Source: Escherichia coli (GTDB lineage: Bacteria; Pseudomonadota; Gammaproteobacteria; Enterobacterales; Enterobacteriaceae). From it: a stretch of DNA of 64,000 bases. The stretch lies in assembly GCF_001677475.2 (NCBI RefSeq), contig NZ_CP015229.1, one strand, 5' to 3'. Positions 33,687 through 36,095 of this stretch are shown here, in pieces; positions within the stretch are counted from its first letter, which is position 1; every line of letters starts with the position of its first letter. The position numbers and the translations under genes were made by a program. A model generated the notes under the pieces. That model worked only from the letters and a program-made list of their open reading frames with translations, was not told where the DNA came from and searched no databases.

Positions 33687-33779
33687 TATGAGACGACAAT
33701 AACTCAGTCCGCCTGGCGCCGATTATTCTGGCCGGTTTTGTAACCTGAGTGTCATTTACATGATCCAACAGGAAATGGC

Positions 33780-35279
33780 GTGACGCTCAATACTTCTCAG
33801 GTCAGTTACTATATGACTCAGCGTAAGAAAGGTATAACTCAGCATATCTCGGCCATGAAGGCTGGTATCTCAGTCCGTTCTGGTCGTCGGATCGAAAAAG
33901 GAGAGTGGGCAAAAAACAGTGTTCGGCACTGGCGCACACGCAAAGATCCTCTGGAAGCTGTGTGGGACAGCATGCTTGTTCCTCTGTTGAAAGAGAGGCC
34001 GGCTCTGACACCAACAACTCTACTGGAGATGCTACAGGATAAATATCCCGGCCAGTACCCCAACAGCCTTCGAAGAACAATGCAACGGCGGGTTCGCGAA
34101 TGGAAACTACAGTATGGTACAGAGCAGGAGGTCATGTTCCGCCAGCAACATCAGCCCGGCCTGCGAGGCCTGTCGGACTTTACTGAACTGAAAGGTGTAG
34201 TTGTCACCATCGCCGGTAAGTTGTTGGCGCATAAGTTGTATCACTTCCGTCTGGAATGGAGCCACTGGAGCTGGATGCGGGTTGTTCTGGGTGGTGAGAG
34301 CTTCTCTGCTCTGGCTGAAGGCCTGCAGGAAGCCCTCGGACAACTGGGCGGAGTGCCGGTAGAACATAAAACGGACAGCCTGAGGGCAGCATGGAAACAA
34401 CAGGGCGAAGATGGACGCCGCGAGCTGACTGAGCGTTATGCTACTCTCTGTCAGCACTACGGAATGCAGGGCGTACACAATAATGCCGGTCGGGGCCACG
34501 AAAATGGCTCGGTTGAAAGTGCCCACGGACATCTGAAAAGGCGTATCTGTCAGGCGCTGATACTGCGGGGCAGTAACGACTTCAGCACCATAGAAGAATA
34601 TCAGGCCTTCATCACTCAGCAGGTTATGCGGCACAACCGTAACAATCAGGATCTGGTCAAGGAAGAACGTCTTCATCTGAAACCGCTGCCGCTTCGTCGC
34701 AGTGCTGACTATGATGAGCTGACTGTGAGGGTTAGTCGCAGCAGTACCATCAATGTGAAGCACGTCGTCTACAGCGTACCTTCCCGGCTTGTAGGTCAAC
34801 TGTTACGGGTCAGGTTATGGGACGATCGTCTGAGCTGTTACGTTGGCAGCAGCGAGGTCATGAGCTGCCCTCGCGTCAGACCAGAAAAAGGGAAGACGCG
34901 GGCCCGTCGTATCGACTTCCGACATGTGATCGACAGTCTGGCAAAAAAGCCCGGTGCGTTCTGCCATGCAACGCTGAGAAATGACATCCTGCCGGACGAT
35001 GAATGGCGGAGGCTGTGGCGTCGCTTATGTAATCATCTGGAGCCCGATATGGCAGGAAGGCTGATGGTACATGCCCTGAAACTGGCTGCAGGATACGACG
35101 ATATCTCAGTCGTGGCAAAAGGTATGGAGCAGATGCTGAATACCCCGGGAAACGTGGATCTGCACCGGCTGATGCGCTTCCTGGGTATAAAAGAAAAGGC
35201 GTTGCCGGTAGTCAATGTGATACAGCATAACCTGAGCAGTTATGAGCAACTACTGCGTGGCAAGGGAGGTTCGCAGTGA
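33780..35279 (+). CDS. istA: IS21-family transposase IstA
   Basis: 499 aa; N-terminal HTH, central DDE integrase-like core; overlaps istB start. Confidence 0.8.
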   Translation: MTLNTSQVSYYMTQRKKGITQHISAMKAGISVRSGRRIEKGEWAKNSVRHWRTRKDPLEAVWDSMLVPLLKERPALTPTTLLEMLQDKYPGQYPNSLRRTMQRRVREWKLQYGTEQEVMFRQQHQPGLRGLSDFTELKGVVVTIAGKLLAHKLYHFRLEWSHWSWMRVVLGGESFSALAEGLQEALGQLGGVPVEHKTDSLRAAWKQQGEDGRRELTERYATLCQHYGMQGVHNNAGRGHENGSVESAHGHLKRRICQALILRGSNDFSTIEEYQAFITQQVMRHNRNNQDLVKEERLHLKPLPLRRSADYDELTVRVSRSSTINVKHVVYSVPSRLVGQLLRVRLWDDRLSCYVGSSEVMSCPRVRPEKGKTRARRIDFRHVIDSLAKKPGAFCHATLRNDILPDDEWRRLWRRLCNHLEPDMAGRLMVHALKLAAGYDDISVVAKGMEQMLNTPGNVDLHRLMRFLGIKEKALPVVNVIQHNLSSYEQLLRGKGGSQ

Positions 35280-36031
35280 GCAATATCCATCACCTTGAAC
35301 ATAGCCTGCGTAAACTACGCCTGACACGAGTTGGAGCTGAATGGCACGCTCTGGAAAAACGAGCGCTGGCAGAAGGCTGGACACCATCGCGCTATCTTCT
35401 GACGCTATGCAATGAAGAACTCCTGTGGCGCGAGAGTGAAAAACTGCGTCGTTATAAAAAGGAGGCCCGGTTGCCAGTTGCCAAAACGCTGAGCGAATAC
35501 GACTTCAGTCAGGTGCCGGAACTGAATGGAGCTCAGTTCCGGCAACTCTGTGAAACGACAGACTGGGTTGATGCAGGAGAAAACGTTCTGCTGTTCGGAG
35601 CCAGCGGGTTGGGGAAAAGCCATCTGGCGGCAGCGATCGTGGATGGCGTAGTAGGTCAGGGCTACCGGGCCCGGTTCTACAGCGCAGGAGAGCTGTTGCA
35701 GGAACTACGTAAAGCCAGAGCTCAGTTGAAACTGAATGAGCTGCTACTGAAACTGGATCGCTACCGGGTGATAGTGGTGGATGATCTTGGCTATGTCAAA
35801 CGCGATAGTGCCGAAACGGGTGTGCTGTTCGAGTTAATAGCGCATCGCTATGAACGTGGGAGCCTGGTGATAACCAGTAACCATCCGTTCAGCATGTGGG
35901 GCAGCATCTTCGTGGATGAGACTATGGCGGTGGCTGCGGCAGACAGGCTGATCCATCACGGATATATGTTCGAACTGAAAGGGGAAAGCTACAGGAAAAA
36001 GACAGCGAAGGCAGTAACAAGCGCGACTTGA
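35276..36031 (+). CDS. istB: IS21-family helper ATPase IstB
   Basis: 251 aa; Walker A GASGLGKSHLA, Walker B VIVVDDLGY. Confidence 0.85.
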   Translation: MSNIHHLEHSLRKLRLTRVGAEWHALEKRALAEGWTPSRYLLTLCNEELLWRESEKLRRYKKEARLPVAKTLSEYDFSQVPELNGAQFRQLCETTDWVDAGENVLLFGASGLGKSHLAAAIVDGVVGQGYRARFYSAGELLQELRKARAQLKLNELLLKLDRYRVIVVDDLGYVKRDSAETGVLFELIAHRYERGSLVITSNHPFSMWGSIFVDETMAVAAADRLIHHGYMFELKGESYRKKTAKAVTSAT

Positions 36032-36095
36032 TGTCGCCCTGAAGGGTGCGGCCAGTATAGTTGGCGCGAGTCGGCAAAACTAGTTGACGTCTAAT

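Follow-up and report, generated by a model that had tools for sequence, protein, structure and literature searches.

Insertion of ISEc10 into the major capsid gene of an Escherichia coli prophage that also carries an island in its large terminase gene

How the major capsid gene of a lambdoid prophage came to lie in two pieces, and what the break means for a prophage whose large terminase gene is also split, are the questions raised by the 64,000-nucleotide stretch of Escherichia coli DNA analysed here (contig NZ_CP015229.1 of assembly GCF_001677475.2; hereafter the window). Our analysis leaves us nearly certain that an intact copy of the IS21-family element ISEc10 transposed into codon 252 of the 407 codons of the HK97-type capsid gene, and in doing so duplicated 6 bp of the target, CCCGTG. 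Both the element and this kind of damage to a prophage morphogenesis gene are already known, and the event is not new in kind. In E. coli O157 Sakai, IS insertions, frameshifts and deletions likewise affect the morphogenesis genes of lambdoid prophages, and such defective prophages can still interact with other resident elements (Asadulghani et al. 2009, PMC2669165). The window prophage differs from these in strain, in insertion sequence and in target gene, and also in hosting a satellite-like island in its large terminase gene.

The interrupted capsid gene

The 5' part of the capsid gene lies at 32933..33686 on the plus strand and holds codons 1-251 and the first base of codon 252, while the 3' part, at 36103..36572 on the same strand, holds the rest of codon 252 to codon 407 and the stop codon. 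Read as it stands, the 5' open reading frame (32933..33691) runs through ...YESTDEDDKTRV and ends ...DEDDKTRV*, its valine codon and its TGA stop (33689..33691) falling inside the insertion sequence. A second open reading frame, which runs to 36572, includes ...TRAFGKLQHIASG... from 36096 onward, with the capsid sequence resuming as ...TRAFGKLQ.... Removal of 33687..36102, that is, of the insertion sequence together with one copy of the flanking repeat, yields an open reading frame of 1224 nt encoding 407 amino acids. The restored product matches TIGR01554 (HK97 major capsid) with 390 bits, residues 5-397 aligning to positions 2-385 of the 385-position model, and the gene is syntenic with genes for the portal and the HK97 prohead protease. 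An uninterrupted homologue is present in 1059 of 5426 E. coli genomes. The restored gene aligns without gaps to that of E. coli E21845/O/A at 97.8% identity (27 mismatches over 1224 nt, 4 amino-acid differences), and the junction GACAAGACCCGTGCGTTTGGC is continuous in the E21845/O/A capsid gene. The first-pass annotation had read the region as a single capsid gene interrupted between ...DEDDKTR and ...AFGKLQ..., and had proposed aligning the fragments to the capsid of the terminase island as a check. The interruption was found where that annotation had placed it, and the match of the restored frame to TIGR01554 from end to end and to intact E. coli capsids without gaps bears out the reading of one split gene. 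The proposed alignment is colinear across the junction (35% identity, E 2e-65), with ...DKTRPFGTLQ... in the island capsid against ...DKTRAFGKLQ... in the restored one.

In the IS21 family the DDE transposase IstA, acting with the AAA+ ATPase IstB, makes staggered cuts in the target, and ATP-bound IstB captures, selects and bends the target DNA. At the capsid locus ISEc10 would have been inserted at such staggered cuts, the repair of which would have left the short direct repeat. The gene now consists of a 251-codon 5' part ending two codons into the insertion sequence and an unconnected 3' part. The break falls in the body of the HK97 fold, such that the N-terminal product would comprise about half of the shell domain together with the scaffold-like coiled-coil region. 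Because the break falls in the middle of the capsid fold, we infer that a functional capsid protein would not be made, and that the prophage would be without heads of its own.

The island in the terminase gene and a possible tail donor

The large terminase gene (TerL) of the prophage is separately split, its 5' part lying at 13689..14710 and its 3' part, with the nuclease domain, at 30112..30855, both on the plus strand and matching terminase families as N-terminal and C-terminal parts respectively. Between them, at 14711..30111 (plus strand), is a 15.4-kb integrase-bearing island that starts with a tyrosine integrase gene and also holds genes for an anti-repressor, Icd-like proteins, a RepA-type helicase, SSB, an HK97 capsid, a protease, a portal, a head-tail adaptor, HNH, TerS and a second, complete TerL; neither tail nor lysis genes were found in its 15.4 kb. 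The island is bounded by an imperfect core, with attL reading ...TTTTTTCACGAAG and attR ...TATTCTCACGAAAC, against ...TTTTTTTACCAAAC in intact TerL. Published work on capsid-forming PICIs (cf-PICIs) gives as their features a size of 10-15 kb, a terminal integrase, their own capsid, protease, portal, connector, HNH, TerS and TerL, and a lack of tail and lysis genes (bioRxiv 10.1101/2022.09.08.507074). This gene content is what we find in the island, both from its own genes and from the annotation of a homologous island, and the island thus looks like a capsid-forming PICI.

The island also holds, at 18652..18739 (plus strand), a sequence that matches the C4 antisense RNA family (Rfam RF01695) over its full length, scoring 72 bits where the gathering score is 45. 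It sits among two open reading frames with Icd-like C-termini, downstream of the anti-repressor gene, and the region resembles a control region of the P1/P7 immI type, here in a satellite-like element.

We found the junction between TerL and the integrase gene in 35 of 5426 complete E. coli genomes, one of them that of E. coli 2014C-3075, where it lies in an Stx1d prophage. In 2014C-3075 the genes run TerS, TerL 5' part, island, TerL 3' part, portal, protease and then an intact capsid gene, and the sequence aligns contiguously, at 96-98% identity, to 23366..33686 of the window and then from 36093 onward, with nothing between. As 2014C-3075 carries the island with an intact capsid gene, integration of the island is older than, and independent of, the insertion in the capsid gene, and the earlier suggestion of a second, independent hit on the prophage is upheld. 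On structural grounds the insertion sequence would be the less reversible of the two: the island could in principle excise and so restore TerL, while the insertion sequence would need a rare precise excision.

The part of the window at 9640..10631, downstream of the Q antiterminator gene, holds an open reading frame for an AraC-family regulator (YdeO/GadX-like, below curated cut-offs) followed by tRNA-Met and tRNA-Arg genes, where the related prophage of 2014C-3075 has stx1d; no open reading frame of the size of the Stx A subunit was found at 9640..10631. At 52540..64000 the prophage ends next to tRNA-Ser(TGA), beside the hya and app operons. Among the 5426 complete E. coli genomes, the best match to this host flank with the hya and app genes reaches 98.4% identity, and for this reason the source lineage is not closely represented among them.

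A prophage disabled both in packaging and in head formation could persist as a tail donor, or helper, for the satellite in its TerL, with the hit by the insertion sequence being neutral or favourable to that satellite. We consider this unlikely, but it is the most plausible of the alternatives that we weighed. The prophage tail genes between 36572 and ~52400 all have uninterrupted reading frames close in length to their counterparts in the intact relative, and the island, which has no tail or lysis genes, encodes a capsid, protease, portal, adaptor, HNH, TerS and TerL of its own. A cf-PICI is induced by a helper phage and is packaged in small capsids of its own, to which tails of the helper are joined. 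The cf-PICI study reports that only the tails come from the helper, the capsids being made by the islands themselves, and its tests included helper prophages with mutations in terL and in other genes (bioRxiv 10.1101/2022.09.08.507074). The idea of a tail donor is as such compatible with the anatomy of the locus and with published cf-PICI biology. On this reading, the prophage has lost its terminase (reversibly, to the satellite) and its capsid (irreversibly, to ISEc10) and has kept an open tail module, and there is perhaps a slight chance that it is a dedicated tail factory for the satellite. Were this so, the hit by the insertion sequence would turn a competing helper phage into a non-competing one. 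Against this stand the purely inferential nature of the argument, and the result of a megablast search in which not one of the 5426 complete E. coli genomes had ISEc10 in this capsid gene; there is hence no sign of selection for the insertion. In addition, the presence of ISEc10 in at least three other viral contigs of the apparent source genome fits an untargeted expansion of the element.

The insertion sequence, its ends and the target duplication

The reading that we prefer, transposition of an intact ISEc10 into the capsid gene, turns on the identity and the ends of the intervening DNA. The istA gene (33780..35279, plus strand) has a GTG start and no internal stop, and encodes an IS21-family transposase of 499 amino acids (NF033546, 226 bits against a cut-off of 160). 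The istB gene (35276..36031, plus strand), also with a GTG start, encodes an AAA+ helper ATPase of 251 amino acids (NF038214, 267 bits against a cut-off of 200), and its start overlaps the istA stop in the sequence GTGA (35276..35279). Both open reading frames are intact and above the curated NCBIfam cut-offs, confirming the first-pass reading of them as IstA and IstB, and they follow each other on the same strand in the order that is characteristic of the IS21 family. In the translation of IstB we read a Walker A motif, GASGLGKS, and a Walker B motif, VVDDLG (within VIVVDDLG), and the protein has weaker matches to the DnaA and DnaC AAA+ families. IstB has a single private, conservative change, V80, where other copies have L. 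IstA has the length of the RefSeq ISEc10 IstA and differs from other copies by 2-5 amino acids. Among Pfam families IstA matched no rve/DDE domain and only Mu-transpos_C_2 (residues 311-366, E 2e-7), and the NF033546 alignment spans residues 12-304; support for its putative catalytic core comes from the NCBIfam IS21 model and from the very high identity to known copies, and not from a motif. The missing rve match, like the TA...TA termini described below, fits textbook IS21 poorly.

A megablast search with 33600..36200 against 5426 complete E. coli genomes gave 1032 records with a match, nearly all of which start at 33687 and finish at 36096; the best are 99.9% identical and are annotated as "IS21-like element ISEc10 family transposase" and "helper ATPase IstB". 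Over the 2410 bp, identity to RefSeq loci annotated as ISEc10 ranges from 98.3% (CFT073) to 99.9% (OkiPb01695), with the closest copy, that of E. coli OkiPb01695, showing 3 mismatches to the window copy. This is above the isoform convention of ISfinder, at least 95% DNA identity. The assignment to the IS21 family made in the first-pass annotation, which had proposed a comparison with family references, is supported by the NCBIfam IS21 models and by these RefSeq copies. ISEc10 of CFT073 and of many RefSeq genomes shares with the window element its length of 2410 bp, its ends, a 499-aa IstA, a 251-aa IstB and the overlapping stop and start, and differs from it in insertion site and at V80 of IstB.

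The ends of the element were defined by comparing the window copy with seven ISEc10 copies at unrelated chromosomal sites, to which we added ten more loci by scanning IMG/VR for exact matches to the left end of the element. Where both ends are present the conserved element reads TATGAGACG...CGTCTAATA and is flanked by its own direct repeat, and its length is 2410 bp, or 2409 bp in two copies. On this basis the capsid gene holds a complete ISEc10 of 2410 bp at 33687..36096 (plus strand), with ends TATGAG...TCTAATA that are set by the copies at other sites. Its left terminal inverted repeat lies at 33687..33733 (plus strand) and its right one at 36050..36096 (minus strand). The termini had been described as imperfect inverted repeats, and when they are aligned from the true ends, 34 of 47 positions are shared between the left repeat and the reverse-complemented right one; a repeat search likewise returned, as the longest inverted repeat of the region, a 52-nt pair at the ends of the element that is 71% complementary. 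No second copy of ISEc10 was found within the window. A composite transposon or other larger insertion was considered and rejected, given that there is a single copy in the window and that the capsid halves are exactly 2410 + 6 bp apart.

The first-pass annotation had ended the element at 36095 and had described a 7-bp duplication, ACCCGTG. The heptamer is literally present on both sides, at 33680..33686 and 36096..36102, and 7 bp is within the range of 5-8 bp that we find for duplications at ten ISEc10 sites, such that an element of 2409 bp (33687..36095) flanked by a 7-bp repeat might be entertained. We regard it as very improbable. The A found here at 36096 also comes after ...TCTAAT in each of the twelve further copies for which a right end was obtained, irrespective of flank, and seven of these have it although their left flank lacks an A before the repeat. 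Within the inverted repeat, the partner of this A is the opening T of the left end (TATGAGACG vs TATTAGACG). Because the terminal A is kept in copies irrespective of flank, the right end of the element is at 36096 and not at 36095, and because the seventh matching base is the element's own terminal A, the duplication is 6 bp, CCCGTG, with its left copy at 33681..33686 and its right copy at 36097..36102. The flanking repeat of the earlier description therefore stands, while its length and the right boundary do not; the match between the terminal A and the target A at 33680 is a coincidence. The chance of an exact 6-bp match at the exact boundaries of an element is about 1 in 4096.

Duplications in the IS21 family are 4-8 bp, and the 6 bp at the capsid site is a short duplication of this kind. 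The ten ISEc10 sites with a duplication, including that of the window, have repeats of 5, 5, 6, 6, 6, 6, 7, 7, 7 and 8 bp, namely CACTGAG, GGTCACC, GTATG, GACCT, CCCTGTG, CCCGTG (twice), GTTTAA, CGCTCAAC and AGCGTT. The second CCCGTG, likewise preceded by A, is at an unrelated site in E. coli NCTC86, between radC and a DUF987 gene, and this recurrence may be chance or a weak preference. We do not claim a target preference for ISEc10, as the ten duplications have no consensus despite the recurrence of CCCGTG and the presence of CCCTGTG at another site. Three further copies lack a duplication (L006, in E. coli WP2-S18-ESBL-08, L011 and L019), which suggests rearrangement between copies or nested insertions; the L006 copy adjoins another IS21-like istB, and its own istB is frameshifted.

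With the prototype IS21 of plasmid R68.45, ISEc10 shares the istA-istB layout, an AAA+ helper, imperfect inverted repeats and a short duplication. The two differ in their termini, which are TG...CA in IS21 and TA...TA in ISEc10, and the ISEc10 duplication varies from 5 to 8 bp (10 sites). TG...CA termini are typical of many members of the IS21 family and are not strictly defining. The window copy does not have them, and as every ISEc10 copy examined reads TATGAG...TCTAATA, the TA...TA ends are not peculiar to the capsid locus. A junction promoter has been described for IS21 tandems. Read from the sequence, ISEc10 has in its left end a -10-like GACAAT and, at a distance of 7 nt from its right tip, a -35-like TTGACG, and these could form a junction promoter in the style of IS21; unlike in IS21 tandems, no tandem copy of ISEc10 is present in the window. 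At the left junction we also observed a hybrid promoter-like pair (33672..33700, plus strand) in which ATGACA of the capsid gene would serve as -35 and, after a 17-nt spacer, GACAAT of the element as -10, with 9 of 12 consensus positions, as a consensus match only.

Empty sites and the place of the insertion in prophage decay

The intact relative E21845/O/A has the gene order HNH, TerS, TerL, small open reading frame, portal, HK97 protease, capsid, connector and tail genes, and the window aligns to it at 12704..14710, at 30112..33686 and from 36093 onward, being colinear with it apart from the two interruptions. The first-pass annotation had called for a search for the empty site in related prophages, and the intact site is indeed present in such prophages (L001, L010).

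Insertion sequences are a classic cause of misassembly, and one draft assembly breaks right at the copy in the capsid gene, but a repeat-induced misjoin that placed a copy between two contigs can hardly account for the arrangement, as the same 6-bp duplication is present at both junctions and removal of the element restores the frame exactly, neither of which a random misjoin would produce, and as the identical junction sequence occurs in the separate public records L009 and L016. The first of these, an NCBI draft contig, has the identical junction and breaks 57 bp into the insertion sequence. The second, an IMG/VR contig from IMG genome 2721755653, equals window positions 31193..37427 with the same junction and 0 mismatches over 6235 nt. 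Among the GTDB species-representative genomes, by comparison, the left junction had no exact match.

That same IMG genome, apparently the source genome of the window, has ISEc10 in at least three more of its predicted viral contigs (L013, L014 and L015). The copy in L013 splits a KilA-N/anti-repressor-like open reading frame near its C-terminus and is flanked by a 6-bp duplication, GTTTAA. Together these observations suggest a general, ongoing activity of ISEc10 in that genome, eroding several of its prophages. The window copy is itself probably still active. ISEc10 is mobile experimentally in E. coli CFT073, in which new insertions next to lpp were selected (PMC7482066).

For annotation, transposition of ISEc10 into the capsid gene means that both capsid pseudogene pieces should be entered as a single gene disrupted by an insertion sequence, that the element should be given the boundaries 33687..36096 with a 6-bp duplication, and that head assembly should be recorded as defective in the prophage. 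The wider context, a satellite-like island inside the TerL gene of a prophage, is more interesting than the insertion sequence itself. As the same composite prophage exists elsewhere with an empty site, the insertion of ISEc10 into the capsid gene is a clean and recent example of prophage decay driven by an insertion sequence.
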